Below, one piece after another: positions 1 through 31,135 of a stretch of 31,135 nt of DNA; the first letter of the stretch is position 1; each line of letters starts with the position of its first letter. Where the stretch lies: the IMG/VR virus record IMGVR_UViG_644736359_000006. One strand, given 5' to 3'. The notes below the pieces were generated by a model. It was not told the DNA's origin and searched no databases. It worked only from the letters and a program-made list of their open reading frames with translations. The stretch comes from a virus (taxonomy: Duplodnaviria; Heunggongvirae; Uroviricota; Caudoviricetes). Position numbers and translations under genes: made by a program.

Positions 1-1284
1 TTACAGACTTCTGGAAGGTTGCGCAGCTCTTACAACACGCGGTTGATCTTCCGCAGCGTCTTCCAGCGCACTTAAATCACGGTCTTTCACCTCTGGCATT
101 TTCAGCGCAGAGATTAAACCAATCACTGAATATGCCATGATCATAATGGCGATCGGATACCAGGATTCCGTCATGGTGCAGAAAATACCCGCCAGGATAG
201 GACCAAAACCGGAAGCGATAAGACCACCAATTTCTTTAGAAATAGCCATCCGGGTAAAGCGGTTTTTACAGCCGAACATTTCTGCCATGGTAATGTTTTC
301 CAGAGCAAATAATCCCAGCACCGCACAGTTATGAATCACAATCAGTGCAACCATAATGGTGCTCGGGGCATAGCTTTTATCTACAATGATAGAAAGCATT
401 GGCCATGCCAGCACAATCGCGGAGGTATTCATAATAATATACGGGATCCGGCGACCAATTTTATCGGATAACCAACCAAGGAACGGAATGGTCATAAAGC
501 CGAGAATCGAACTAATCATCAATGCATCTGTTGGAATTGCTTTGTTAAACAATAACGTCTGCACTAAATAGCCTGCAAGGAAAGTCTGAATTAACCCGGA
601 GTTACCCGCCTGACCAAAACGCAGCCCTGTTGCCAGCCAGAAGGATTTGCTCTGGAACATGCTACCAGCAGGTGCAGGTTTTGCTGTGGGTTGGTTGCTG
701 TCATTAACCTTCTCAAAGACCGGGCTTTCTTTCAGATTCATACGTAACCAGATAGCAAAGACCATCACGACAACGCTCGCCAGGAACGGTATACGCCATC
801 CCCACGCCAGCAGTTCCTCTTTACTGAGAATGAAGAACATAAAGGCCCAGATTGCCGTTGCGCTCAAGGTTCCGCAGTTAGTTCCCATAGCTACAAATGA
901 GGAGATAATTCCGCGCTTACCTTTTGGTGCATATTCCGCCAGCATCGTACCGGCACCGGAAATTTCCGCACCTGCACCCAACCCCTGAATAATACGCAGC
1001 GTCACCAGCAAGATGGGGGCAAAAACACCAATCTGTGCATAGGTCGGTAACACACCAATTAAGGTGGTACAGATCCCCATCATGGTGATGGTAATAAAGA
1101 GCACTTTTTTACGCCCTATTCTGTCGCCCATTTTGCCGAAAATAAATGCTCCGACAATACGCGCCACATAACCTGCACCGTAGGTTCCCATTGCCAAAAT
1201 TAACGCCATTGCCGTTGATGATTCAGGAAAAAATATTTCATGAAACACTAACGCTGCGCCGAGCGAATATAACTGGAAATCCAT
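1..1284 (-). CDS. ydfJ: MFS transporter YdfJ, 427-aa portion lacking the first TM helix (gene split by prophage insertion)
   Basis: 427-aa ORF with multi-TM hydrophobic profile and MFS-type loop GKMGDRIGRKK; begins at MDFQLY...EIFFP without the usual first helix; AT-rich prophage DNA starts immediately upstream (~1285). Confidence 0.8.
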   Translation of the reverse strand: MDFQLYSLGAALVFHEIFFPESSTAMALILAMGTYGAGYVARIVGAFIFGKMGDRIGRKKVLFITITMMGICTTLIGVLPTYAQIGVFAPILLVTLRIIQGLGAGAEISGAGTMLAEYAPKGKRGIISSFVAMGTNCGTLSATAIWAFMFFILSKEELLAWGWRIPFLASVVVMVFAIWLRMNLKESPVFEKVNDSNQPTAKPAPAGSMFQSKSFWLATGLRFGQAGNSGLIQTFLAGYLVQTLLFNKAIPTDALMISSILGFMTIPFLGWLSDKIGRRIPYIIMNTSAIVLAWPMLSIIVDKSYAPSTIMVALIVIHNCAVLGLFALENITMAEMFGCKNRFTRMAISKEIGGLIASGFGPILAGIFCTMTESWYPIAIMIMAYSVIGLISALKMPEVKDRDLSALEDAAEDQPRVVRAAQPSRSL

Positions 1285-2069
1285 AATTCACAGGTGTTTT
1301 TTCCCATCCTGTGGTTCCCTTGGCGTTTTCTAGGTTTTTTCAGATAGTTGCATTTTTTAAAAAGCATCCTGAGTTCGATCTCAGTGTCTATCTGGGGCCT
1401 ATTTCTGTCCCATATATGCCCCAAAAAAACTCCCCAACAGATAAGTGGTTTTTTCATGGATTTATGCGTAAAATCAAGAACGGCTGGAAATCATTCAATA
1501 CACACACTATCGAAAAATTTACCAGCCAACCGCAGCACGTTCTTGCATAAGGCGTGTCTGCGGTTTTTCAACTATTCAGATACATCACTCCCATCACATT
1601 CATTCCTCCGCATCAAAGGCATATAGGCTATATCACCTTGATATTTTTCTTCTTCAGATAAAAACTGTTATCTATGTATACTTTTAAACCCAATCCGTGT
1701 AGAGTCTCTGCATAAGATAGTTTGCAGTTGCCGCTTCAGCTTGCGCCATAAACCGCCTGATTTTTGCTGCCACCTGTTAGCATTCCTGTATACCTGAAAC
1801 GACAATGTTTATCTACGAACTTTAAGAACACCCAAGATAAAAATCGTCAACTATATCATATATAACACATTAATAATTCGAGGCTATATGAACAGCATAC
1901 TGATAATCACTTCTCTCCTTATCATATTCAGCATTTTTAGTCATGCCCTAATAAAATTAGGGATTGGCATATCCAATAACCCAGACAAAACCGATGTATA
2001 AGTCAACATATTCTGAATCAGACATACAATATCGCAATGAAAATCAATAATATTTTAAGGAATATCTTC

Positions 2070-2303
2070 ATGAAATCAAAAGACACCCTAAAGTGGTTCC
2101 CTGCGCAGCTTCCTGAAGTAAGAATTATCCTAGGGGATGCTGTAGTGGAAGTAGCAAAACAGGGAAGACCTATCAATACCAGAACATTGCTTGATTACAT
2201 TGAAGGAAACATAAAGAAAAAATCATGGCTGGATAACAAAGAATTATTACAAACAGCGATATCAGTTCTTAAAGACAACCAAAATTTAAATGGTAAAATG
2301 TAA
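2070..2303 (+). CDS. ydfK: YdfK/YnaE-family small cold-shock-associated protein
   Basis: 77-aa ORF MKSKDTLKWFPAQLPEVRIILGDAVVEVAKQGRP...; AAGGAA Shine-Dalgarno about 8 nt upstream of ATG at 2070. Confidence 0.8.
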   Translation: MKSKDTLKWFPAQLPEVRIILGDAVVEVAKQGRPINTRTLLDYIEGNIKKKSWLDNKELLQTAISVLKDNQNLNGKM

Positions 2304-2618
2304 TATAATTAACTTACTTTTTTATCATTTTCCACTTTAACAACATTTTGCTCCACTTTTCCACGACCAAACAACTTGAAATCTGGTTAAAATAACACGC
2401 AACACTATTCTTCTTCCTTGAGTCCGCCTGGAACTCGAAAAACAAACCGAGTTAAAGCCATTTTTCACAAAATCGATTTTGGGTCTCACCAAAATTACGG
2501 GGTTGCATACGCATTCGTTTATTTTCGAACGTGTACATACAAATATGCACAAAAATAATCAAAATTATTTTCTGAGATGCATTATGATATGAACACCAAT
2601 TTCGTATAGAGTCTCACT

Positions 2619-3209
2619 ATGTCTCGAATTTTTGCTTACTGTCGGATATCAACGCTGGATCAGACCACCGAAAATCAACGCCGGGAAATCGAAAGTGCAG
2701 GTTTTAAAATCAAACCTCAGCAAATAATCGAAGAACACATTAGCGGCTCAGCAGCAACCAGTGAGCGTCCTGGTTTTAACCGGTTGCTTGCTCGCCTGAA
2801 ATGTGGTGATCAATTGATTGTGACAAAATTGGATCGCCTTGGTTGTAATGCAATGGATATCAGGAAAACAGTGGAACAACTGACCGAAACAGGTATCAGA
2901 GTGCATTGCTTAGCATTGGGGGGCATTGACCTGACCAGTCCAACAGGAAAAATGATGATGCAAGTAATTTCAGCAGTCGCTGAATTTGAACGAGACCTTT
3001 TACTTGAACGCACTCATTCCGGGATAGTAAGAGCCCGGGGCGCAGGGAAACGTTTTGGTCGACCACCTGTGTTAAATGAAGAACAGAAACAGGTGGTATT
3101 CGAACGGATTAAGTCAGGTGTAAGTATAAGTGCCATTGCCCGGGAATTCAAAACCTCGCGGCAAACCATTTTAAGAGCCAAAGCAAAACTTCAGACACCT
3201 GACATATAA
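2619..3209 (+). CDS. pinQ: Serine recombinase / DNA invertase Pin
   Basis: 196-aa [23 protein letters not shown]... with resolvase-type catalytic N-domain and C-terminal HTH; sits between ydfK and the tail-fibre genes as in Qin. Confidence 0.85.
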
Positions 3210-3436
3210 AAAATAATCTCGGTGTGAGATGCTTTACGTCTTCCAAGCCCCCTTCCTTGCCGTAAATGGAAAGATACATCTAATTATAGAATTTATATGT
3301 TTTACCCTACGGCAGTGCTGGCCATTCAATATCCTGTGCAGTTGACGTATCAACACGGTTCAGCAACACCCGATACTTTTTCCTGGCTTCCAGCAACGGG
3401 GTTTCTTCCTCCGTTGCATATACAGCTCACCTTTTT

Positions 3437-3730
3437 TCACCCACGATTAACCAACAGCCAGATCAGCAGACACGCCACCACCGGCACAGCAAAATCCATC
3501 AGGCTTGCCACATCCCAAACACGCGGATCAAAACCGCCCCACCACGGCATGTTAATCCGCTTGCCATGCCCGAACATTTCAATCCAGCGATATTCTGCCT
3601 GGGTGTGTTCACGCGCAATGAAGAACGTACAACCAGCTATCGCCCCATAAGCCCAGTTTCCGGTAAAAAGACCAACCAGTGTCTGCGCAGCCACAGCACA
3701 AAGCGCATGAAGAAAAGGTGTTATATCCAT
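3437..3730 (-). CDS. Hypothetical small membrane protein
   Basis: 97-aa ORF with two hydrophobic segments; AGGAGG Shine-Dalgarno directly upstream of ATG at 3730; family not recognised. Confidence 0.45.
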   Translation of the reverse strand: MDITPFLHALCAVAAQTLVGLFTGNWAYGAIAGCTFFIAREHTQAEYRWIEMFGHGKRINMPWWGGFDPRVWDVASLMDFAVPVVACLLIWLLVNRG

Positions 3731-3740
3731 TACTCCTCCT

Positions 3741-4445
3741 TTATCTAATATCGCTTCGGGAAGTTAATAACAACTTTAATTCTGACTCAAGTTCATCAAC
3801 TCTTTCAGTCAGTTTCTGGATATGGTGAATCAGTGGAACAACCAGACGTTCGTACATTACACCTTCGGCAACAAGGCCATTGCTGGAAATAGCTTCAGGA
3901 GCATCATCTTCGTTAGCTGGTCGCCAGTGTACAAACTGAGGAGCAATTTCTCCTACTTCCTCGGCAATCAATCCGTAGAATCCCCAGTCACGCCTGTCAT
4001 TTTCGCATTGCGACCTGTACCACACAGGGCGCATCCTGAAAATGAGATCGGCGTGCTCTGAATCTATTGTCTCTACTGAATGTTTATAGCGGATAGACGA
4101 TGTTGACCGCAGCACAGACGAAATTGCAGGGTCAGGATTAAGATAAAGGTTTGCCGCCGCTGTAGTCGTGGCCAAATTCCATAAATAAAACGCTTCACGA
4201 CCTGTCAGTGGATAAAAATCTCCGCCATAACGACCACTTTCCAGATCGTTCACTTCCACTTTGTTTTTCAGCTTATTATCAACTTCAGTTTTTGTGTATC
4301 TGGAGCTGATATCCTGCTTTGCACTGGTCATCTCAGTCTGAAGCGTTGATACTTTTCTGCTAATTGATGAAATATCTTCCTTAGCTTTACTGACATCCCC
4401 CTTTAGCTTGGTGATATCTCCTGGAATTACTGTCGATGTAGCCAT
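3741..4445 (-). CDS. Tail-fibre-associated protein with C-terminal intramolecular-chaperone (peptidase S74-like) domain
   Basis: 234-aa ORF; N-terminal coiled-coil-like K/S/T-rich stretch; C-terminal motif SSIRYKHSVE...GLIAEEVGEIAPQFV...GVMYERLVVPLIHHIQKL resembles the endosialidase/tail-spike chaperone domain. Confidence 0.45.
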   Translation of the reverse strand: MATSTVIPGDITKLKGDVSKAKEDISSISRKVSTLQTEMTSAKQDISSRYTKTEVDNKLKNKVEVNDLESGRYGGDFYPLTGREAFYLWNLATTTAAANLYLNPDPAISSVLRSTSSIRYKHSVETIDSEHADLIFRMRPVWYRSQCENDRRDWGFYGLIAEEVGEIAPQFVHWRPANEDDAPEAISSNGLVAEGVMYERLVVPLIHHIQKLTERVDELESELKLLLTSRSDIR

Positions 4446-4454
4446 TTTCCTGCC

Positions 4455-4736
4455 TCACATCCAGCCACGAAGTTGATGCTCAACAACAACCGCGTATTTA
4501 TCGAATATTGACGATTTTTTTGCATCATTAATGATGCGCACGTTTACAAAATATCCGTCTTCCTTAACACATACCGGCTCGCCATCTTCAGTAAGTTCTC
4601 CGGTTTCTTTGTACACGTTACCTATCACGTCAATAAGAATATCATCCTGCATCGACTCGTCATCATAATAGCCAGCACTCTTCATAAAGGCCGAAAAGTC
4701 GGCCTTGTCTGTGAATTTGATAATTAAATCTCGCAT
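4455..4736 (-). CDS. Hypothetical protein translationally coupled to stf
   Basis: 93-aa ORF whose ATG overlaps the stf stop (TAATG); acidic, no recognisable motif. Confidence 0.4.
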   Translation of the reverse strand: MRDLIIKFTDKADFSAFMKSAGYYDDESMQDDILIDVIGNVYKETGELTEDGEPVCVKEDGYFVNVRIINDAKKSSIFDKYAVVVEHQLRGWM

Positions 4737-7114
4737 TATATTATCTCTCCCATTTGCGCATCGGTTAATTCTTTATGCCATATTCTAAAATTCCTGATAT
4801 AACCAAATAAATGACGTAAGCCGGCTGTAGTCTGGCCTCCAATCCTTATACCTGTAGCACCACTAACACTCTTCCACGTTGTTGATGCTGGTGTTGATAA
4901 AACCCCATTGCAGCCAGCCTGAAACTTGCCATCGCTTTTTATTCTATATACAGCGATAATCTTTCTTGGGTAATTTCCAGGTGGAAATGATATTGGATTA
5001 CCAAATTGAACATATGGAGTTCCTACACTACCTGCTGTATTTCTGAATGCAAAAACAAAAGCGTCGTCTTTTGTTTTAAATCCTGTTATATCATAAATTC
5101 TAGGCGCGGAATTTGGTGCTATAGACCAATTTTTATTCACTTCAACCATGCAGGTTAAAGGTTTGCTGGCCATGTTATTTTTACAAGGCAATGTAACAAT
5201 ATCGCTTGCTCGCGTTGATGCAACTGTATCGGAAATGATAAAAGATGATGCGCATGAGCCGCCTTCAAATTGTGGTGTCGTAACATCCAAATATTCCCCG
5301 CCCAAATAAGTTCCAGGTGAAACAGGTGGAGCAATTTGGATCTGAGAGCCAACCATATTATCAATAGCTTCAGATTGATATGTAACCTCGAAATAAATCC
5401 ATCCATTAGATTCTTTCTCCGCTCGGGCGGTTATTCTTGCAGCCCCTCCTCCCGTTTTCCTAATGGACATATCTGTTATATTAAGATATGCATCTGCCAG
5501 ATAAAAATATGCGGACCCGTCATATCTTTCAAATCTTATACGACATTGTATATTAGCACTATCGCTTTTTACACGACATGATGTTGTAACATACTTTTCA
5601 GTTCCAGTAACATCGACACCTCTTCCTCCTGAAACCGCAGCGATATTCATTGTCGTATTTGTCCCAATTTTTTCGTCCTTTATTTGAAACCGCCCATAAG
5701 TAAAGCCAAACTCATCAACACCACTTTCTGTTATAGTTACACTTGTTGTAGCTCCCCACTTAGATGGCGTAAGTGAATTAAGATGATAGTTGGTTCTTTG
5801 TCCTTCAATCAGCAAACCTTCTCGTTCAAATCGCGGTTCGTCAACTTCAGCAACGGTTAATACTCCTGATTTATTAATGTATGTTGCACCTGATGCGCGT
5901 TTGAAGCTAACAACCTTATCGGATGGCATTTTAATAACATCATCACCTACAGTTATTTGCTTATAACCAGGCGAAAAGCCAGCAAGCATATCCAGTGAAT
6001 CGTTAAACGGTATCCACACATCGGGAAGCGGCTGCAAAACTTGTTTATACGGCTCCGCAGCCTGGCTTGCATACTCTCTGGCTGCGTCTTCACTTGCTTT
6101 TGCAGCCGTCTGGCTTGCAGCGGATGCTTTCGCCGAGTTAGCCGCCGCAGTCTCGCTCGCCTTTGCGTTGGTTTCACTGGTTTTTGCAGCTTTTTGACTG
6201 TTGGCTGATGCAGTGGCAGAAGAAGCCGCCGCACTTGCAGAACCAGCTGCGGCACTCTCGCTTTGGGCCGCTGCATCCTGACTGTTTTTCGCCGCAGTTT
6301 CGCTGGCTTTGGCATTCGTTTCGCTGGTCTTCGCTGCCGTCTGGCTGGACTTTGCGTTAGTTTCGCTCGTCTTCGCTGCTTTCTGGCTGTTAGCTGCAGC
6401 AGTTGCTGATCCAGCTGCTGAAGTCGCAGAACCGGCTGCCGCACTCTCGCTTTCGGCTGCTGCAGCCTGACTGCTTTTCGCCGCAGTTTCACTGGTTTTG
6501 GCATTCGTTTCGCTTGTTTTCGCTGCCGCCTGGCTGGACTTTGCGTTGGTTTCGCTCGTCTTTGCTGCTGTCTCGCTATTTTTCGCGTTGTTTTCTGATT
6601 TTTTAGCTGCTGTCGCGGAGTTTGCCGATGCAGTCTGCGAGGCCGCTGCCGCCTGTGCGCTGTTAGCTGCATGCGTTTCTGAGGTTTTCGCCGCGTTCTT
6701 CGATGATGCCGCTGCTGTTTCTGATTTCTTTGCTGCCGCTGCGCTCTGAGAGGCGGCTTCAGCGTTGCGTGCTGCTTCTTCCACCATTGCCTCAAAACGA
6801 CGCAATGCCTCCGGCATGACATCATCTTCCGTCATGGCACCGAGAAAATCATTCAGCGTACCAGGTCTGGAACCTTCATAGACGGTAATGGTTCCGGCAT
6901 GTGAAGGCGGAAAACCTTCAACCAGCAGGGTGACGCTGTACTGGCCATACTCGACATCCATGCTGTAACGCCCGGCTTCATCCGGATTTTCAGAGGCTAC
7001 CGTGTTCACCAGTACCGTGGTGCTGTTACGCTTTGCCTTCAGTTGAATAGTGCAGTTCTGTATTGGTTTTCCCGCACCATCTTTCAGCACACCTGAGATT
7101 TTTACTGCTGCCAT
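4736..7114 (-). CDS. stf: Side tail fibre protein, lambda Stf-like N-terminus, Ala/Ser/Thr-rich repeat shaft, LamG/ConA-like C-terminal domain
   Basis: N-terminus MAAVKISGVLKDGAGKPIQNCTIQLKA... matches lambda Stf; GGAG RBS before ATG 7114 (ORF track starts at upstream GTG 7120); C-terminal ...LFGYIRNFRIWHKELTDAQMGEII resembles the LamG jelly-roll end motif. Confidence 0.85.
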   Translation of the reverse strand: MAAVKISGVLKDGAGKPIQNCTIQLKAKRNSTTVLVNTVASENPDEAGRYSMDVEYGQYSVTLLVEGFPPSHAGTITVYEGSRPGTLNDFLGAMTEDDVMPEALRRFEAMVEEAARNAEAASQSAAAAKKSETAAASSKNAAKTSETHAANSAQAAAASQTASANSATAAKKSENNAKNSETAAKTSETNAKSSQAAAKTSETNAKTSETAAKSSQAAAAESESAAAGSATSAAGSATAAANSQKAAKTSETNAKSSQTAAKTSETNAKASETAAKNSQDAAAQSESAAAGSASAAASSATASANSQKAAKTSETNAKASETAAANSAKASAASQTAAKASEDAAREYASQAAEPYKQVLQPLPDVWIPFNDSLDMLAGFSPGYKQITVGDDVIKMPSDKVVSFKRASGATYINKSGVLTVAEVDEPRFEREGLLIEGQRTNYHLNSLTPSKWGATTSVTITESGVDEFGFTYGRFQIKDEKIGTNTTMNIAAVSGGRGVDVTGTEKYVTTSCRVKSDSANIQCRIRFERYDGSAYFYLADAYLNITDMSIRKTGGGAARITARAEKESNGWIYFEVTYQSEAIDNMVGSQIQIAPPVSPGTYLGGEYLDVTTPQFEGGSCASSFIISDTVASTRASDIVTLPCKNNMASKPLTCMVEVNKNWSIAPNSAPRIYDITGFKTKDDAFVFAFRNTAGSVGTPYVQFGNPISFPPGNYPRKIIAVYRIKSDGKFQAGCNGVLSTPASTTWKSVSGATGIRIGGQTTAGLRHLFGYIRNFRIWHKELTDAQMGEII
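6120..6600. repeat. Tandem 189-bp (63-codon) repeats inside stf
   Basis: Unit beginning gcactctcgcttt at 6252 recurs at 6441 (period 189 bp, ~90% identity) with a degenerate copy upstream; encodes repeated ...SESAAAGSA...ANSQKAAKTSETNAK... blocks; explains the shadow ORFs on both strands. Confidence 0.7.
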
Positions 7115-7125
7115 ATCCACTCCAC

Positions 7126-7844: not shown

Positions 7845-9148
7845 TCAGCTAATCATGATGCCTGCAGTGGCTTTCTTCATCACCACAACCAGCAAATCGC
7901 TGATACTTGCTGTGGGATACCAGCCATTTACCAGCCATGCCGATACAGAAAATTCCAGTGTCATTACACCACTGCCTGCAGGCATATCAATAACACCCGT
8001 ATATATCAGCGTATTATCCAGAGCCGTTCGGTTATAAATTTCAGCACCGTTTTTTCGTACTATCAGACGGCATGAGGAGTAGATATCAGTATGATCTTGC
8101 TCATGTTTAGCGCCACTGAATGCCACCGCCGGAATAACAATTTGCCGGTCAAACGGCTGATCGTCATAAACCCTGACGGTAATGGTCCCTGATGGCCACC
8201 GCTCCGGTGCACGGGAGTCCCGGGGGAAAGCTTTGCCCACTGTTTTAACGAGATCGCCTTCAATCTGGTTCGCGGACAGTTTTCCCAGAACCCGGCAGTT
8301 CTCGTTAATCGTGACGTTGTTGAGCGTCCCGGAGTTCGCATTCACGTTACCGCTAATATCGGCATTTTTCGCCGTCAGCCGCCCGTCCGGTGTCAGGGAA
8401 AATGCCGGAGGATTACCGCCGCTGGTAATGGTGGGAGCCGTCAGATATTTCAGGAACACTTCGTTCATGAATATCTGATCGCCCTGACCAACAAACATCG
8501 GCTTTGTGTTGCCATTCGCAGGATTAATCATCGCAATCCTGTCCGCCGCCAGCAGCACCTGACTCTGCATACCGTCAGGGGTATTCTCAATACCGGCACC
8601 AATACCCGCGATATAAAGGCGTCCGTCCTGCATCTGCTGCAGCTTCACAGCCCACATGCTGTTCAGGTTATTATTTGTATCAACCTGAACCTTCTGTATC
8701 TGCTGGATTGCCGCACTCTGGTCTTCCAGTTTCTTATTGACGGTCTGCGTGATTTCATTACTGACATCCGTGATGGACGTTCTGATTTCCGCCAGGTCAG
8801 GCGCAAGCTGACCGTTATCAATCTGCGTCCACAACTCCTGAGCCAGATGGGTTTTCCCTATCTCTCCTTTGAAAAAATTCAGATAGCCGGATGCATCATC
8901 ACTCGGCTGGCCAACAGCCTCCACGAATGCCGATTTGCCAACGGTGTTCACACTGCGGATGTAAAAATAATAATCATGGCCCGGTTTGATATTGATACTG
9001 GCGGCTATCCAGTACAGCGCCGTGCCAAGATAGCGTGCTGTGGTTTCAACCTGCCTGATATCCGCAATCCGCTTTTCCGAGAACCAGAACTCAAACTGTA
9101 CCGTCGGATCATAAACCGCAAGATGCGGCGTGGCGGTTATCTGAAAAT
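7845..9148 (-). pseudogene. Host-specificity protein J (tail tip), C-terminal ~434 codons only, 5' end removed by IS3
   Basis: Long ORF runs without a native start straight into the IS3 left end at 9149; position upstream of lom matches lambda J. Confidence 0.7.
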
Positions 9149-9204
9149 TGATCTTACCCAGCAATAGTGGACACGCGGCTAAGTGAGTAAACTCTCAGTC
9201 AGAG

Positions 9205-9513
9205 GTGACTCACATGACAAAAACAGTATCAACCAGTAAAAAACCCCGTAAACAGCATTCGCCTGAATTTCGCAGTGAAGCCCTGAAGCTTGCTGAACGC
9301 ATCGGTGTTACTGCCGCAGCCCGTGAACTCAGCCTGTATGAATCACAGCTCTACAACTGGCGCAGTAAACAGCAAAATCAGCAGACGTCTTCTGAACGTG
9401 AACTGGAGATGTCTACCGAGATTGCACGTCTCAAACGCCAGCTGGCAGAACGGGATGAAGAGCTGGCTATCCTCCAAAAGGCCGCGACATACTTCGCGAA
9501 GCGCCTGAAATGA
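9205..9513 (+). CDS. insE: IS3 OrfA (InsE), HTH transposase component
   Basis: ORF ...[31 protein letters not shown]... with C-terminal leucine-zipper-like region; first ATG at 9205, conventional start a few codons later. Confidence 0.85.
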
Positions 9514-10376
9514 AGTATGTCTTTATTGAAAAACATCAGGCTGAGTTCAGCATCAAAGCAATGTGCCGCGTGCTCCGGGTGGCCCGCAGCGGCTGGTATA
9601 CGTGGTGTCAGCGGCGGACAAGGATAAGCACGCGTCAGCAGTTCCGCCAACACTGCGACAGCGTTGTCCTCGCGGCTTTTACCCGGTCAAAACAGCGTTA
9701 CGGTGCCCCACGCCTGACGGATGAACTGCGTGCTCAGGGTTACCCCTTTAACGTAAAAACCGTGGCGGCAAGCCTGCGCCGTCAGGGACTGAGGGCAAAG
9801 GCCTCCCGGAAGTTCAGCCCGGTCAGCTACCGCGCACACGGCCTGCCTGTGTCAGAAAATCTGTTGGAGCAGGATTTTTACGCCAGTGGCCCGAACCAGA
9901 AGTGGGCAGGAGACATCACGTACTTACGTACAGATGAAGGCTGGCTGTATCTGGCAGTGGTCATTGACCTGTGGTCACGTGCCGTTATTGGCTGGTCAAT
10001 GTCGCCACGCATGACGGCGCAACTGGCCTGCGATGCCCTGCAGATGGCGCTGTGGCGGCGTAAGAGGCCCCGGAACGTTATCGTTCACACGGACCGTGGA
10101 GGCCAGTACTGTTCAGCAGATTATCAGGCGCAACTGAAGCGGCATAATCTGCGTGGAAGTATGAGCGCAAAAGGTTGCTGCTACGATAATGCCTGCGTGG
10201 AAAGCTTCTTTCATTCGCTGAAAGTGGAATGTATCCATGGAGAACACTTTATCAGCCGGGAAATAATGCGGGCAACGGTGTTTAATTATATCGAATGTGA
10301 TTACAATCGGTGGCGGCGGCACAGTTGGTGTGGCGGCCTCAGTCCGGAACAATTTGAAAACAAGAACCTCGCTTAG
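9510..10376 (+). CDS. insF: IS3 OrfB (InsF), DDE transposase catalytic domain, in -1 frame relative to orfA
   Basis: 288-aa ORF overlapping the orfA stop (ATGA) in the -1 frame; DDE-type core ...HTDRGGQY... Confidence 0.85.
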
Positions 10377-10529
10377 GCCTGTGTCCATATTACGTGGGTA
10401 GGATCAATTCACCTAAATACGAGGCATTGCTGTAGTTGAATTGCATTGCTGTATTAGCCTGACAGTGACAGAATACGATATTGACTCTGTCACTTGTGAA
10501 ATGGTCAGAATGGTTAGCAGTTATGGTGA

Positions 10530-10736
10530 TCAGTCAACCACCAGGGAATAATCCTTCGTATTCTTATCGTGCTTTACTAACGCGGCCTCAATTGCCCTGA
10601 ATGCTTCCAGAGACACTTGATGTTCTATACATGCAATTACAACATCCGGGTAACCCATCGAAATGGTGCTATTAAGCATAGTTTTTACACGAACCTGCTC
10701 CTGGGAGGGGGCATCAGTGTATTGATCTTTATGCAT
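10530..10736 (-). CDS. Hypothetical protein
   Basis: 68-aa ORF only; no motif recognised. Confidence 0.3.
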
Positions 10737-11031
10737 TTTGTCGCTCCATGCGTTTGCTCTTCACTTACGGCTAAAAATATAACGTCAAATCACTCAGCAT
10801 GAAAGAGTGAAAGATTCAGCGCGTTTCCCTTACATAATCTGTCGTTTGTATTCTCTTCAGGCATACCGGAAAGACTAGGTATTGTCACACAACCAATACC
10901 ATCGACAATCGAGATTTATACCTATTCGGTAATGTTTAAATATAACAAAACCCCGTAAAAACGAGGTTTATGGGTAATTTGTATTGTTGAATAGCATCTG
11001 ATGAGAAATTGATGCTAATACTATAAACAGA

Positions 11032-11205
11032 CTAGATTAAATCAATCTTGATATCATAGCTTTCAAGACCAGTCATTTTTTCCCGTGCAGTAAACTGGAT
11101 ACTGGTAACTTCTTTCCCGGTCTTTTTCTTAAGCTCAATGATTTTTTTTGTTATATATTCAGAAATATCTGCTTCTGTTTTTGTTTTTAACTCTTCAATG
11201 TTCAT
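11032..11205 (-). CDS. gnsB: GnsA/GnsB-family small protein
   Basis: 57-aa product MNIEELKTKTEADISEYITKKIIELKKKTGKEVTSIQFTAREKMTGLESYDIKIDLI; GAGG RBS; start set at the second ATG. Confidence 0.75.
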   Translation of the reverse strand: MNIEELKTKTEADISEYITKKIIELKKKTGKEVTSIQFTAREKMTGLESYDIKIDLI

Positions 11206-11377
11206 CATTTCCTCTTTTAGTCTGTTATGACTTTCCTGGTACACAGTAGTGTCAATTATATGGAGCAAACGTATAAAAGATAAGATGAAACATCGCAATA
11301 ATCAACATACGACGGTCTAAATTTCACACAAACAGATAAAGATGATTATCATTTATTATCAATGCATTAGAATCAAA

Positions 11378-11647
11378 TCAATTCAAGAGTCTCATTGCTG
11401 CTTCCAGAATTTCTTCTGAAGTTACATGTCGATCCGCTGCTACATAAATGACTTTATGATCTCCGGTCAGAGATGGAAACCCTGCAGCCATTACAGTGAG
11501 GTGTGTTGTTTCGCCATTTGGATATTCACGCATGATGGTGTTAACTCCGGTCATCACTGGCACTACCATTGCTGGTTCAGAGTTAAAAAAAACTATTATT
11601 TTTTTCATAATGTTACCGTAATATGTGAGTATCCATCGACTAGACAC
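11378..11647 (-). CDS. Hypothetical protein at the ynfN position
   Basis: ORF only; start codon uncertain (internal MKKIIVFF... possible); no strong RBS. Confidence 0.3.
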   Translation of the reverse strand: MSSRWILTYYGNIMKKIIVFFNSEPAMVVPVMTGVNTIMREYPNGETTHLTVMAAGFPSLTGDHKVIYVAADRHVTSEEILEAAMRLLN

Positions 11648-11652
11648 TAAGC

Positions 11653-11672
11653 AAAAAAGCTCCCGAAGGAGC
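11653..11672 (-). terminator. Candidate rho-independent terminator downstream of cspI
   Basis: Stem gctcc/ggagc with cgaa loop, followed on the minus strand by UUUUUU. Confidence 0.4.
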
Positions 11673-11879
11673 CTTCATTTTCACTTTCTTAAATCTAACG
11701 ACAGACGGCTAACATTTAAGTATTGTGAAATATTATCAAATGTAATCATCATTGATTTACAAAAGATACATTTTGCCCCGAAAGGATTCCTGTCAGAAAC
11801 ATCAAAAGATGATGTTCTATACTGAGAACCATGGCAACACGGGCATCTAAAGTGAATATGGTTTGTAATATTTTCTACC

Positions 11880-12092
11880 TCAAAGTGCCACAACATGAAC
11901 AGCCGCGGGGCCTTTAGGTCCGTTCTCAATACCAAATTCGACTTCCTGATTCTCAGTTAACGTTTTGAAATCGTTGCTCTGAATAGCTGAGAAATGGACA
12001 AACACATCTTTGCTACCATCTTTCGGCGTGATGAAACCAAAACCTTTTTCAGGGTTAAACCATTTCACTAAACCAGTCATTTTGTTAGACAT
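11880..12092 (-). CDS. cspI: CspA-family cold shock protein
   Basis: 70-aa product [38 protein letters not shown]... with RNP1/RNP2 motifs; long AT-rich 5' leader upstream. Confidence 0.85.
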
Positions 12093-12455
12093 CATTATTA
12101 CCTTTTGAAGAAGTTAGCCCTTGGGCAGAATGGTCCGAAAAAAAATATCAGAGAGAAAAACCAACAAGGAAATCTCAAGAGGTACAAATAATAAAATTAT
12201 AACAATGACTGCTTCAGATAATTTTGTAACAAACCAGAACACCATTAACGCATGATTAACCAACCATAGCAAGGATTACTTTTGTAAAGAAAAACACACG
12301 AATGAAACAATAGCTTTATTTATTAATAAAACGTGTCATTCTGTCTAATGACCTTTTATCTTACCCTTAAGATTTCAAGGATTTTGACTCATGGAAGAGT
12401 CCTTTTTATTTAAATTTCACATTCAGCGCTAAAAATAATCCGATTTAATATTAAT

Positions 12456-15489: not shown

Positions 15490-16758
15490 CTGATATCATT
15501 GGGGTTACACCAGGTAAGTATAGGTGGAAAATCAATATTCGCCAGTTCAACAATAAGGAAAATCTCATTGCATCACAACTATAAAACCATGTGTTTAACT
15601 CACAAAAAACAAATCATTAAACTAATCTGTTATATTATAATAGCTGCGTGCAATAATAATATTATATGCTCTTAATATTCACTTGAAATATCTTCATATA
15701 AAAACAGATTGAATAAAATCTTTTGGGGCTGGTATGTTTACCAACATTAAATTGCATCTCAATGTTTTCTTTAGCGTGAACAGGATTTTTATAAAAACTG
15801 ACACTATGAGCATCATAGCGTAGTTTTTACGATTGTAAATATCCTGCATACAGGAACTCATCACTTTCAGATGATATCGCATACAGTTAATTCACCATCA
15901 GTCTTAGAGCCAGTTCTTCCGGATAGGGATCGAAGTAATTCTGTGTAAGCAAGTAATCATTAGGATACTCACCCAGATAATGCTTCAGCAGAGTCAACGG
16001 CGCAAGAAGAGGCAATGTGCCAAAGCGATAGTTAAGTATAACCTCGCTCAACTCTTTACGCTGGCGTGTGCTTAAGTAATTACTAAAATACCCCTGTATA
16101 TGCATCAGCACATTCGTGTGATTTTTACGTGATGCTGGTTTTCTGAGAATCGCCATCAGATTATCACGATACACCTCAAAGTATGATTCAAGGTCCGCCC
16201 ACTCGTGTATTGCAGCCACAAATGGTCCCATATCTTTATAGCCTGCCTGGCTATGCGCCAACAACTGAAGCTTATAACGACTATGAAAAGCTAATAACTC
16301 TCTTCTTGATAATTTCTCCTTGTAAAGGTGATTGAGCTCATCCAAAGCAAAAACTCTTTCAATAAAATTCTCACGAAGCACTGGATCATGTAATCGCCCA
16401 TCCTCTTCAACCGGTAGCCAGGAAAACTTTTCCATCAAAGTGCTCGTAAATAGTCCCACTCCATCTTTACGACCTCGATTACCATTTTCATCATAGACAC
16501 GCACGCGCTCCATGCCACAGCTGGGAGATTTAGCACAAACCACAAACCCCGATACATCCTTTAATTTGTCCATATAAGAACGACTAAACTCTGTCATTCT
16601 CTCTGTCACATCCTCATTCTGGTCGTGGCTGAAACACATCCGTATATTTCCTTGCTTCGAGCGCACAAGTCGTAGAGCAGGACGCGGAACTGGCAGCCCT
16701 ATTGATCTTACCCAGCAATAGTGGACACGCGGCTAAGTGAGTAAACTCTCAGTCAGAG

Positions 16759-17067
16759 GTGACTCACATGACAAAAACAGTATCAACCAGTAAAAAACCC
16801 CGTAAACAGCATTCGCCTGAATTTCGCAGTGAAGCCCTGAAGCTTGCTGAACGCATCGGTGTTACTGCCGCAGCCCGTGAACTCAGCCTGTATGAATCAC
16901 AACTCTACAACTGGCGCAGTAAACAGCAAAATCAGCAGACGTCTTCTGAACGTGAACTGGAGATGTCTACCGAGATTGCACGTCTCAAACGCCAGCTGGC
17001 AGAACGGGATGAAGAGCTGGCTATCCTCCAAAAGGCCGCGACATACTTCGCGAAGCGCCTGAAATGA
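16759..17067 (+). CDS. insE: IS3 OrfA (InsE)
   Basis: Identical product to copy 1 orfA. Confidence 0.85.
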
Positions 17068-17930
17068 AGTATGTCTTTATTGAAAAACATCAGGCTGAGT
17101 TCAGCATCAAAGCAATGTGCCGCGTGCTCCGGGTGGCCCGCAGCGGCTGGTATACGTGGTGTCAGCGGCGGACAAGGATAAGCACGCGTCAGCAGTTCCG
17201 CCAACACTGCGACAGCGTTGTCCTCGCGGCTTTTACCCGGTCAAAACAGCGTTACGGTGCCCCACGCCTGACGGATGAACTGCGTGCTCAGGGTTACCCC
17301 TTTAACGTAAAAACCGTGGCGGCAAGCCTGCGCCGTCAGGGACTGAGGGCAAAGGCCTCCCGGAAGTTCAGCCCGGTCAGCTACCGCGCACACGGCCTGC
17401 CTGTGTCAGAAAATCTGTTGGAGCAGGATTTTTACGCCAGTGGCCCGAACCAGAAGTGGGCAGGAGACATCACGTACTTACGTACAGATGAAGGCTGGCT
17501 GTATCTGGCAGTGGTCATTGACCTGTGGTCACGTGCCGTTATTGGCTGGTCAATGTCGCCACGCATGACGGCGCAACTGGCCTGCGATGCCCTGCAGATG
17601 GCGCTGTGGCGGCGTAAGAGGCCCCGGAACGTTATCGTTCACACGGACCGTGGAGGCCAGTACTGTTCAGCAGATTATCAGGCGCAACTGAAGCGGCATA
17701 ATCTGCGTGGAAGTATGAGCGCAAAAGGTTGCTGCTACGATAATGCCTGCGTGGAAAGCTTCTTTCATTCGCTGAAAGTGGAATGTATCCATGGAGAACA
17801 CTTTATCAGCCGGGAAATAATGCGGGCAACGGTGTTTAATTATATCGAATGTGATTACAATCGGTGGCGGCGGCACAGTTGGTGTGGCGGCCTCAGTCCG
17901 GAACAATTTGAAAACCAGAACCTCGCTTAG
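17064..17930 (+). CDS. insF: IS3 OrfB (InsF)
   Basis: As copy 1 but ...EQFENQNLA instead of ...EQFENKNLA. Confidence 0.85.
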
Positions 17931-18299
17931 GCCTGTGTCCATATTACGTGGGTAGGATCATATAGCCATTTCCGGACATACTGGTCTGAATGTTACCCAT
18001 TCCACTAATTTGTCCATTAAAAAGTCATCTCTTTTGTGACCACCATCAAAACGAACAGCAGAACCGCCCAAACAACCGCTGATCCCAATCACAGGTTTTT
18101 TTATCATTTCCTCCCCCTTGACTAATTCATTAACACATAAACTTTGTAGTGCACGGACTAAATTGCCTTTCTGGCTTCATCACTGACAATTTTTCTGTTA
18201 TTGACTATTCCTAATATAGTAGGAAAGTTCTTTAAGTGATCGGTCGTACTCATCTATCTTTCATACTTACTCTCAACTATCAAAAGTACAGGATTTATT

Positions 18300-19374: not shown

Positions 19375-20025
19375 TTAGGCCAGCACACCAATTGCCAGCG
19401 CGCGATCGATAAATCGAAAAATCAGCTCCAGTTGGGAGCCATACTTCTCTTCAAATGCCACGGTATCCGTATGCAACTCGTCGTGATGCTTTCTGCACAA
19501 AGGCAAAACAAAGAGATCATGTGCTTTGGTTCCCATTCCGCCCTGCCCGTGACCAATCAGATGATGCGGATCGTCGGCTGGCATACCGCAGCAAGCACAC
19601 GGCTGTGTCTTAACCCAGCGTGTGTATTTCTCCTTAACCCACCGGTGACGTTTAGGCAGCTTCATGAAAGATTCCGGAGACTCTGGATCAACGGTGATGC
19701 TTACCACCGTCTTTTCCTGTGATGGGTTTTGTTGCTGGTGGGCGTGAGGCAACGGTGCAAGATTTTTTGTGCGCTGTTTCAATATGCTGGTGGCGGTCTG
19801 CTCTCCCGGTACGATGTCGCTTTCGCGGTACACCGAGCAGATTTTTTCCGCTGGTAATCCCAGCGAGCGACGTAATACCGCTTCCGGTAGCGCGTCCGCC
19901 AGCTGATTGCGGACCGCCCACCAGGATACCCGGGTATTGTGGAATACCGGCATGGATTCACGGCCCGGCTTAACGACCACCAGCCCAAGTTCCGGTACCA
20001 GAACAGGTCGAAGTAATACCCGCAC
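19375..20025 (-). CDS. DUF968-like nuclease-domain protein (YdfU-like)
   Basis: C-terminal ...[46 protein letters not shown]...; N-terminal half unrecognised; GC-rich with several overlapping shadow ORFs. Confidence 0.5.
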
Positions 20026-20995: not shown

Positions 20996-21607
20996 AGCCT
21001 GCTTCTCCTTGCCTTTCGGCACGTAAGAGGCTAACCTACATGTGTCTAGCATGAAATTGGCCTCAGATTAATGTTAAGCGTCTTGCAGGACGCGTAATGT
21101 TAACTGGGGCTTTTCTCTATCTGCCGTTGGTGTTCATGCCCGAGGCAGATAGCCTCAAGCACCCGCAGCCATTCTACTTAACTACCGTTACCTCTCCAAT
21201 ATGAAATCAATCAGAAAGGTGATCCATAAGAACAATAACAAGACAATAAATTGCCATTACAGCCACAATAGCCAGCGTGCATTTGAGAACCAGCACATAA
21301 ATCTCCTGCTCTTGACGTATACAGGCACTGATAAATATGTGTCTTCGTGCTCGTTACTTCAATACGTAAGCGTCAGTTGCGCGTAATCAAATCAGACAAC
21401 CGACTTTAAACCAGGGACAAACAGCAGGTAAAATAATCAAACGTTATTTTAAGCCATATCATGGCTGCAAGATTTCCTCTAATTTCAACAAGATGAGCAG
21501 GTCATTGCTTGCACTGATGACCTGCTCATTAATCATGATTATTTGAAAATTAAGGTAGGCGTACTATATATAGAAACACTGCTACGCTCCGTTGGCATAA
21601 TATAAAA

Positions 21608-29840: not shown

Positions 29841-31135
29841 ATGAGAGAAGTTGAAATGAAATATCCGACAGGCGTGGAAAACCATGGAGGGAAATTACGT
29901 ATCTGGTTTGTTTATAAAGGCGTAAGAGTCAGGGAAAATCTGGGGGTTCCTGACACAGCAAAAAACAGGCGCGTTGCAGGTGAACTACGCGCCTCTGTTT
30001 GTTACGCAATAAAAACTGGTGTTTTCGACTATGCAAAACAGTTTCCCTCCTCACGCAATCTGGAAAAATTTGGTGAGGCCCGACAAGATTTAACCATAAA
30101 AGAACTGGCTGAAAAATTTCTGGCACTAAAAGAAACTGAAGTCGCCAAAACATCACTCAACACATACCGTGCCGTCATCAAAAATATCCTGAGCATAATC
30201 GGTGAAAAAAATCTTGCCTCATCGATTAATAAAGAAAAATTACTGGAGGTTCGTAAAGAGCTACTGACTGGATACCAGATCCCCAAAAGTAACTATATTG
30301 TTACACAACCAGGGAGATCGGCTGTAACTGTAAATAATTACATGACAAATCTTAACGCCGTGTTCCAGTTTGGTGTTGATAACGGTTACCTGGCAGATAA
30401 TCCGTTTAAGGGGATCTCGCCATTAAAGGAATCAAGAACCATTCCGGATCCTCTTTCGCGGGAGGAATTTATCCGTCTTATCGATGCGTGCAGAAATCAG
30501 CAAGCAAAAAATTTATGGTGTGTTTCTGTTTATACTGGCATTCGCCCTGGTGAGCTGTGTGCACTTGGATGGGAGGACATAGATCTGAAAAATGGAACAA
30601 TGATGATCAGGAGAAATTTAGCAAAAGACCGTTTCACGGTACCAAAAACACAGGCGGGAACCAATCGGGTCATTCATCTTATTAAGCCAGCAATCGACGC
30701 TCTCCGGAGTCAGATGACATTAACGAGACTGAGCAAAGAGCATATCATTGATGTTCACCTCAGAGAGTATGGCAGAACAGAAAAACAAAATGCACCTTTG
30801 TTTTTCAACCTGAAGTGTCAGCGAGAGTAAAAAATTATGGTGACCATTTTACCGTTGACTCAATAAGGCAGATGTGGGACGCAGCGATAAAACGTGCCGG
30901 ACTCCGCCATCGAAAATCATATCAGTCGAGACATACTTATGCCTGCTGGTCGCTGACAGCTGGTGCTAACCCGGCATTTATAGCAAACCAGATGGGCCAT
31001 GCAGATGCGCAAATGGTATTTCAGGTATACGGAAAATGGATGTCTGAAAACAATAATGCACAGGTAGCTTTGTTAAATACACAGTTAAGCGAGTTTGCCC
31101 CAACCATGCCCCATAACGAAGCAATGAAAAATTAA
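29841..31135 (+). pseudogene. intQ: Tyrosine integrase, lambda-type, split by a frameshift near 30812-30830
   Basis: ORF 29841-30830 (N-terminal/core-binding part ...TGIRPGELCALGWEDIDL...) continues in another frame from 30815 (...HTYACWSLTAGANPAFIANQMGH..YGKWM..) containing the catalytic R/H/Y region. Confidence 0.75.

Follow-up and report, generated by a model that had tools for sequence, protein, structure and literature searches.

Beyond IS3, transposase-mediated adjacent deletions are also made by IS1, IS10 and IS903. When an insertion sequence is found without its target-site duplication, the loss normally stems from recombination between IS copies or from an adjacent deletion (PMC11708052). 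All 14 IS150-associated deletions in three E. coli B lines from long-term evolution came after an earlier insertion of the element (PMC11708052), and deletions strike prophage remnants, the Qin-like locus among them, more often than chance would predict (PMC4173774). For IS3 itself, orfAB fusion raises adjacent deletions, according to the work of Sekine, Eisaki and Ohtsubo (1994) in the part cited in PMC11708052. Here we describe a junction between a truncated tail-tip gene (J') and IS3 in the Qin-like prophage of E. coli B, which very probably records a deletion anchored at the insertion sequence. The kind of event is already known, being a textbook IS-promoted deletion of adjacent DNA in a well-known genome; in the literature searched, we found no published description of the J'::IS3 junction.

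The stretch of DNA analysed (hereafter the window; 31,135 bp) is 100% identical, without gaps, to the sequence of E. coli B ATCC 11303 (NZ_CP140008.1), and it covers exactly the whole of a Qin-like defective lambdoid prophage, bounded by the host gene ydfJ, here truncated (1-1284), and by an integrase that is frameshifted and adjoins rspB. In window orientation, the left part runs through pinQ, tail-fibre genes, lom, J', IS3 and a 207-bp ORF, and is followed by the accessory and lysis genes gnsB, ynfN, ynfQ, cspI, rzpQ, rrrQ, ydfR' and essD. The middle part holds a second IS3 (in a ybgA-like gene), Q, DUF968', rem and hokD, and the right part consists of the immunity/replication region, dicB, an exonuclease gene, xis and int. 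The prophage is thus of the defective lambdoid (Qin) type in its ydfJ/rspB locus, its immunity region, Q, lysis genes and tail-fibre remnants, and its missing structural genes (by comparison with strain N51, below). A reading of these letters made from the sequence alone, without database searches, had noted that terminase, capsid and tail genes are missing, and the RefSeq annotation of ATCC 11303 agrees: it lists no terminase, portal, capsid or tail-shaft gene between ydfJ' and the integrase. One tail-fibre ORF of 794 codons (4736-7120, minus strand) contains a 189-bp tandem duplication at 6143-6622, with 81% identity and 21-bp-periodic units; this ORF is fragmented in the RefSeq annotation of ATCC 11303 and a single gene in the annotation of E. 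coli C. The features around the two IS3 copies are as follows.

7845-9148, minus strand, J', the C-terminal 433 codons (1,304 bp) of a lambdoid tail-tip/host-specificity gene J
9146-9148, AAT, left flank of IS3 copy 1, J sequence
9149-10406, plus strand, IS3 copy 1, complete, 1,258 bp, TGATC...GGATCA
9149-9188 and 10367-10406, terminal inverted repeats of copy 1, imperfect, 28 of 40 positions matching
9214-9513, orfA of copy 1, Pfam HTH_Tnp_1
9510-10376, orfB of copy 1, Pfam HTH_21, rve and rve_2 (DDE core)
10407-10409, ATT, right flank of copy 1, the right-hand remainder of the 3-bp target duplication made at insertion
10410-12095, minus strand, accessory (moron) gene block, the original right-hand neighbourhood of IS3 (RefSeq annotation of the identical ATCC 11303 sequence)
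10530-10736, minus strand, 207-bp hypothetical ORF
11032-11205, minus strand, gnsB, followed by ynfN and ynfQ/ymcF
11880-12092, minus strand, cspI, with the lysis genes next
16703-17960, plus strand, IS3 copy 2, in the same orientation as copy 1, with TAT at 16700-16702 and 17961-17963

By its length, its termini and its predicted two-ORF organisation, copy 1 is assigned to IS3 (IS3 family, IS3 group). It is 99.8-99.9% identical to copies that RefSeq labels 'IS3-like element IS3 family transposase', and a candidate motif for a -1 frameshift, CCAAAAGG (A-AAA-G type), lies near 9474 in the overlap of the two ORFs; RefSeq labels the element with 'programmed frameshift'. The absence of a target duplication bears on the history of this copy, not on its identity as IS3. 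Whether a duplication is absent depends on where the element ends. With TG...CA ends, the only flank match of copy 1 is AT/AT (2 bp, with a chance expectation of 1/16). Shifting either end by 1 nt produces an apparent 3-bp repeat, AAT or ATT, in which a terminal T or A of the element is miscounted as flank. Such shifted ends were rejected because the TG...CA ends are fixed by copy 2 (TAT/TAT), by the single TAT at the corresponding place in strain EC931, and by the filled and empty states of the ATT site described below. With the ends so placed, AAT (9146-9148) faces ATT (10407-10409), and copy 1 lacks a target-site duplication, as had been proposed.

The two flanks come from unrelated parts of the phage genome. 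On the left, J' has Pfam matches to Ig_J_second (entered at profile position 13), Phage_Tail_Tip and Ig_GpJ_C, and is called 'phage tail tip protein, missing N-terminus' in RefSeq, which places the AAT flank inside J, where the sequence-only reading had put it. A full-length J protein has roughly 1,130-1,160 residues, of which the 433 C-terminal ones are kept here. The gene is cut at 9148, at the junction with the left end of IS3, where the T is ambiguous by 1 nt and could belong either to J or, as its last T, to the old left flank. On the right, ATT lies next to the gnsB/cspI region, also as proposed, the RefSeq genes that follow being the 207-bp ORF, gnsB, ynfN, ynfQ/ymcF and cspI.

Comparison of these junctions with related prophages shows which of the two flanks is the original one. 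IS3 sits at the identical right-hand nucleotide and in the same orientation in strains EC931, BKQ37E and N51, with ATT on both sides of the element (ACGATATTGTAAATT/IS3/ATTCACCTAAATACG; duplication coordinates 6530-6532 and 7791-7793 in L001, 21228-21230 and 22489-22491 in N51, L006). The site is uninterrupted in EC190486, which has a single ATT (...GATATTGTAAATTCACCTAAATACG...). In the filled-site strains, the DNA to the left of IS3 consists of about 430 bp of non-coding sequence, then a DUF1441 gene, then the large terminase gene; cos would lie in the non-coding stretch, and DUF1441 would be small-terminase-like. The right junction, IS3/ATTCACCTAAATACG, is the same in the window, EC931, BKQ37E and N51. 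At the other breakpoint, J is uninterrupted in EC190486 (...GGTTATCTGAAAAT/AGCCCGGCG...), and with a chimeric query it was found to read through in more than 4,100 genomes. The best read-through J, that of EC20 (98.9%), was considered and rejected as a proxy for the ancestor: it belongs to a lambda-type prophage that occupies a different locus and has another kind of head module.

Since the right junction is unchanged and the left terminus of IS3 stands against J, the right flank is ancestral and the left flank was brought in by a deletion. The proposal that copy 1 reflects deletion or recombination rather than simple insertion is borne out by this arrangement, in which the original right junction is kept while the left terminus abuts J. 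The ATT-site IS3 spans three prophage backgrounds, namely the EC931 type, the remnant type of BKQ37E and the intact N51 prophage with its different integrase. It is shared among them either because recombination carried it from prophage to prophage or because the site is an IS3 hot spot.

We consider it highly probable that copy 1 is the ATT-site IS3 and that it anchored a deletion running from its left terminus into J. In this scheme, IS3 would first have inserted normally, with duplication of ATT, in a lambdoid phage genome of Qin type, at a point between the cos/DUF1441/large terminase end of the structural operon and the hyp-gnsB-ynfN-cspI block. In the lineage leading to E. coli B, C and Crooks, a deletion anchored at the left terminus of IS3 would then have removed the left ATT, cos, DUF1441, the terminase, portal, capsid and tail genes, together with ~64% of J on its N-terminal side. 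J' abuts a complete left inverted repeat at 9148/9149, so that the deletion is precise to the terminal nucleotide of IS3, with an ambiguity of 1 nt. This terminus-precise junction of the B type differs in kind from the deletions that cut into IS3 elsewhere.

The extent of the loss can be measured on N51, in which a complete head/tail module stands to the left of IS3 at ATT. Its tail genes are J (3,399 bp), I, K, L, M, the tape measure gene, T, G, V, U and a Z-like gene, and its head side comprises two small genes, a protease/capsid fusion, the portal gene, a small ORF, terL (2,103 bp) and DUF1441. The breakpoint of the window corresponds to position 3707 of N51 (L006) and the left end of IS3 to position 21231, with J and the ATT site collinear. 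Relative to N51, which is a mosaic relative (J ~92% identical where aligned, different integrase), 17,523 bp (17.5 kb) are absent, a stretch with 18 genes that also takes in the left copy of ATT, the cos region and 64% of J at the N-terminal side. A genome combining IS3 at ATT, a B-type J and an intact module was not found.

How much of this module went in the IS3-anchored event is a separate matter. The nearest relative, EC931, has no mismatch over 1,041 bp of J', is 99.9% identical on the right side and has its prophage at the same chromosomal locus. It keeps IS3 with the duplication, DUF1441 and 1,521 bp of terL, and it has a junction of its own, J'(1041)/terL'(1521), which is free of any IS and leaves a J' shorter than that of the window (1,041 vs 1,304 bp). 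Taken together, the two prophages imply that the module was lost independently in the two lineages and that their common ancestor carried IS3 at ATT alongside DUF1441, no less than 1,521 bp of terL and no less than 1,304 bp of J. The simplest reading is that this ancestor was intact and that all 17.5 kb were lost in the event of the B lineage, which we favour with some reserve. The sequence-only reading had taken copy 1 to mark deletion of the whole head/tail module: the IS3-anchored deletion stands, and removal of the entire module in a single step is the part that we hold less firmly.

The alternative that survives best, although we think it unlikely, is that the module had already been largely deleted without any IS and that the IS3 event trimmed a remnant of a few kb (part of J', terminase/DUF1441 fragments and cos), in which case IS3 would mark the present junction and not the cause of structural-gene loss. 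IS-free J'/terL' junctions with two different endpoint pairs do exist. Besides that of EC931, the strains EC190486, H2 and BKQ37E share the remnant J'(2445)/terL'(339)/DUF1441'(156), and BKQ37E pairs this IS-free remnant with IS3 at ATT, an arrangement from which an IS3-anchored deletion of ~2 kb would yield a B-like structure; a remnant-only deletion in the B lineage would have measured ~2-3 kb. However, the J' of this remnant type is 4-9% divergent from that of the window, and the J' of EC931 is identical but shorter, so that neither known remnant type can be the direct ancestor. An earlier deletion would also have to fit inside both of the later ones, which requires an extra event. Loss of the intact module in the B lineage remains our preferred reading.

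If the intervening DNA had been moved rather than lost, the reciprocal flanks should still be joined to IS3 somewhere, and a search for them was run on 5,426 complete genomes. The junction of the old left flank with the left end of IS3 is present in six (EC931, PK8276, QML220614, TUM17668, DAX4, there in two pieces, and N51), none of them B-type, and the junction of the right end of IS3 with the continuation of J is present in none of the 5,426. Neither reciprocal product thus occurs in any B-type genome, and the structural DNA has been lost, neither inverted nor translocated. Both of the checks suggested with the sequence-only reading, the junction comparison and this search, therefore speak for it. 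A chimeric query made of the right end of IS3, AAT and the continuation of J was used for the intermediate of a two-step route, the right end of IS3 followed by AATAGCCCGGCGTCAGC being the junction expected for an IS3 inserted in J. This intermediate (IS3 in J, flanked by AAT) was found in 0 of 5,426 genomes, the sole match with at least 80% coverage being a two-piece, unrelated arrangement; its absence is to be expected if it was short-lived. An IS-free J'(1304)/ATT junction (GAAAAT-TCACCTAAATACG) does not occur among the matches listed, and every genome seen with J'(1304) has IS3 attached to it.

Two routes could lead to the observed junction. In the two-step route, which we regard as the likeliest and give an even chance, a second IS3, oriented like the first, would have landed at AAT within J by a local hop, and homologous recombination across the pair would then have excised the DNA between them. 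In the one-step route, which is plausible but falls short of even, the transposase would have made an adjacent deletion from the left end of the resident element; anything else is improbable. Both routes would leave the same product, one intact IS3 with unrelated flanks. Among the IS3 copies compared, only IS positions 200 and 1214 vary, and a test for hybrid elements can use these two alone. At 1214, copy 1 has A, the base also present in the ATT-site IS3 of the EC931-type strains PK8276 and TUM17668.

Copy 2, a simple insertion in a ybgA/DUF1722-like gene (2-thiouracil desulfurase family), differs from copy 1 at positions 200 and 1214. It is absent from EC931, where the ybgA-like gene is uninterrupted (single TAT) and both DUF968 and the integrase are intact; the ATT-site IS3 is therefore older than copy 2 and than the lesions of DUF968 and the integrase. 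The two copies have since recombined with each other. In E. coli C (CP029371) and a B subline (CP115178), just one IS3 remains, flanked on the left as copy 1 is and on the right as copy 2 is (L010, L011 4500-5757), and both strains lack the 7,554 bp between the copies, with gnsB, cspI and the lysis genes. The IS3 of E. coli C is a hybrid, with G200 from copy 1 and C1214 from copy 2, whereas that of CP115178 is of copy-2 type throughout, which points to two independent crossovers. Recombination between IS3 copies thus demonstrably operates in this same prophage.

Other deletions on the left side of the ATT-site IS3 are of a different kind. In BL21(DE3), window positions 1-6665, ending in the tail-fibre gene, are joined to about position 34 of IS3 (window 9182), and the sequence then continues into the right flank of copy 2; the junction (L013 46957-46964) leaves no stf N-terminus, lom, J' or IS3 left inverted repeat. 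This illegitimate deletion did not stop precisely at the IS terminus and left IS3 one-ended. In HCM-25C-3 and 300490 (L014, L015, about 4364), the IS3-right-end::ATT junction is kept and a left-truncated IS3 is joined to lom'; in F11 (L016, about 4484), the same right junction is kept and a left-truncated IS3 is joined to stf'. These are further independent left-side deletions at the ATT-site IS3. In HCM-25C-3 and 300490, the tail-fibre gene contains an additional IS3, which is inverted. In QML220614 (L007 7234-8361), the ATT-site IS3 is identical to copy 2 over its first 1,129 bp, is cut at about position 1128 and is joined to the equivalent of window position 21397, just upstream of queH, which suggests recombination with copy 2 followed by a further rightward deletion. 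DAX4 has another copy of IS3 (L008 7706-8963), with flanks GTA/CAG and no duplication, which replaces the gnsB region (the equivalent of window 10883-11467) and adjoins an otherwise intact terminase/portal/capsid block, another IS3-associated deletion in this prophage family.

The J'::IS3 junction itself is present in 27 complete genomes, among them those of E. coli B, C and Crooks/ATCC 8739 and of human, poultry and seawater isolates. Its spread over laboratory strains and such varied isolates marks it as an old natural event, not a laboratory artefact. In all, the order of events runs from IS3 at ATT through the IS3-anchored deletion and the insertion of copy 2 to the losses in sublines and in BL21.

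A broader reading gives IS3 a still larger part. The ATT site would be an IS3 hot spot or an ancient shared insertion, the insertion would be the first 'grounding' lesion, and IS3 would be the main driver of domestication in this prophage family. Insertion at this point would separate the late promoter/lysis region from the terminase/structural operon, and the element would then anchor in turn the J'::IS3 deletion, the deletion between copies 1 and 2 and the deletions that truncate IS3 (BL21 and others). From the arrangement in N51, the IS3 insertion itself may have been an earlier handicap. As a whole, we find this broader reading doubtful.

The truncating deletions bear on a further alternative, in which a microhomology or end-joining deletion, independent of IS3 activity or homology, ended at the edge of IS3 by chance. 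Illegitimate events plainly do occur here, as the junctions of BL21(DE3), HCM-25C-3, 300490 and F11 all cut into IS3, and the one ambiguous T at the junction could be microhomology. However, all the IS-independent deletions in the relatives end inside IS3 or far away, and the endpoint in the window lies within 1 nt of the IS3 terminus with the inverted repeat complete, for which the random chance is roughly 1 in 1,000 (for a region of several kb); we regard this explanation as very improbable. Hardly credible at all is an independent simple insertion of IS3 into a pre-existing junction of J' with the gnsB side, with a 2-bp AT duplication or a misdefined end, as the AT/AT match and the apparent 3-bp repeat after a 1-nt shift might suggest, since it would need a second hit on the very nucleotide, and with the orientation, that EC931, BKQ37E and N51 share at the right flank, the TG...CA ends are fixed by copy 2 and two empty sites, and the IS-free J'(1304)/ATT junction that it presupposes is absent from the matches listed.

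The ATT-site IS3 as anchor of a deletion into J thus remains the preferred account, and an IS3-associated deletion had been offered earlier as the explanation of why this prophage is cryptic. Loss of the structural genes does suffice to block particle formation, but it is not the sole lesion: the prophage also has a frameshifted integrase, the second IS3 and truncated DUF968 and methyltransferase genes. The integrase (29841-31135) is present as two ORFs, labelled 'frameshifted' in RefSeq, and is intact at 1,281 bp in EC931. The DUF968 gene lacks ~390 bp that are present in EC931, and the alignment blocks of the two strains share an 11-bp overlap (19918-19928), which suggests a deletion between short direct repeats.

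These comparisons account for how the Qin-like prophage of the laboratory strains B, C and Crooks is built and give the order of its events. They add one more natural example of insertion sequences speeding the decay of a prophage and have little import beyond bookkeeping. The locus makes a clean teaching case, as public genomes offer the site both filled and empty, together with an intact relative and the later recombinants.

Among described systems, the deletions by IS150, an IS3-family element, at the rbs operon and as 'IS-Del' in E. coli B (PMC4173774, PMC11708052) likewise start from a pre-placed element and run outward from it. They also leave one intact IS without a target duplication, in the same species and strain background. 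Unlike those cases, the present one involves IS3 itself, is an ancient natural event found in 27 genomes, and concerns ~17.5 kb of genes for phage structure instead of a metabolic operon; the IS150 cases have time series, whereas the intermediate stage of the J'::IS3 event is not visible. The transposase-mediated adjacent deletions of IS3 (Sekine, Eisaki and Ohtsubo 1994), as far as the account cited in PMC11708052 goes, resemble it in starting at the IS end, in keeping the IS and in losing the duplication on the deleted side. Recombination between two IS3 copies yields an identical product and is documented in the same prophage, in the hybrid of E. coli C. Qin of E. coli K-12 and other 'grounded' lambdoid prophages (PMC6379469) offer the remaining comparison, with the same ydfJ-rspB locus, the module lost and the integrase damaged. 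The gene types kept in common with K-12 Qin are cspI, gnsB, ynfN, rzpQ, rrrQ, hokD, rem, dicB and pinQ. K-12 Qin presumably retains a nohA-like gene and has no IS3 at the corresponding junction. Compared with K-12, the endpoints of the deletion are lineage-specific, and the prophage of E. coli B is set apart by its J'::IS3 junction and its two copies of IS3.
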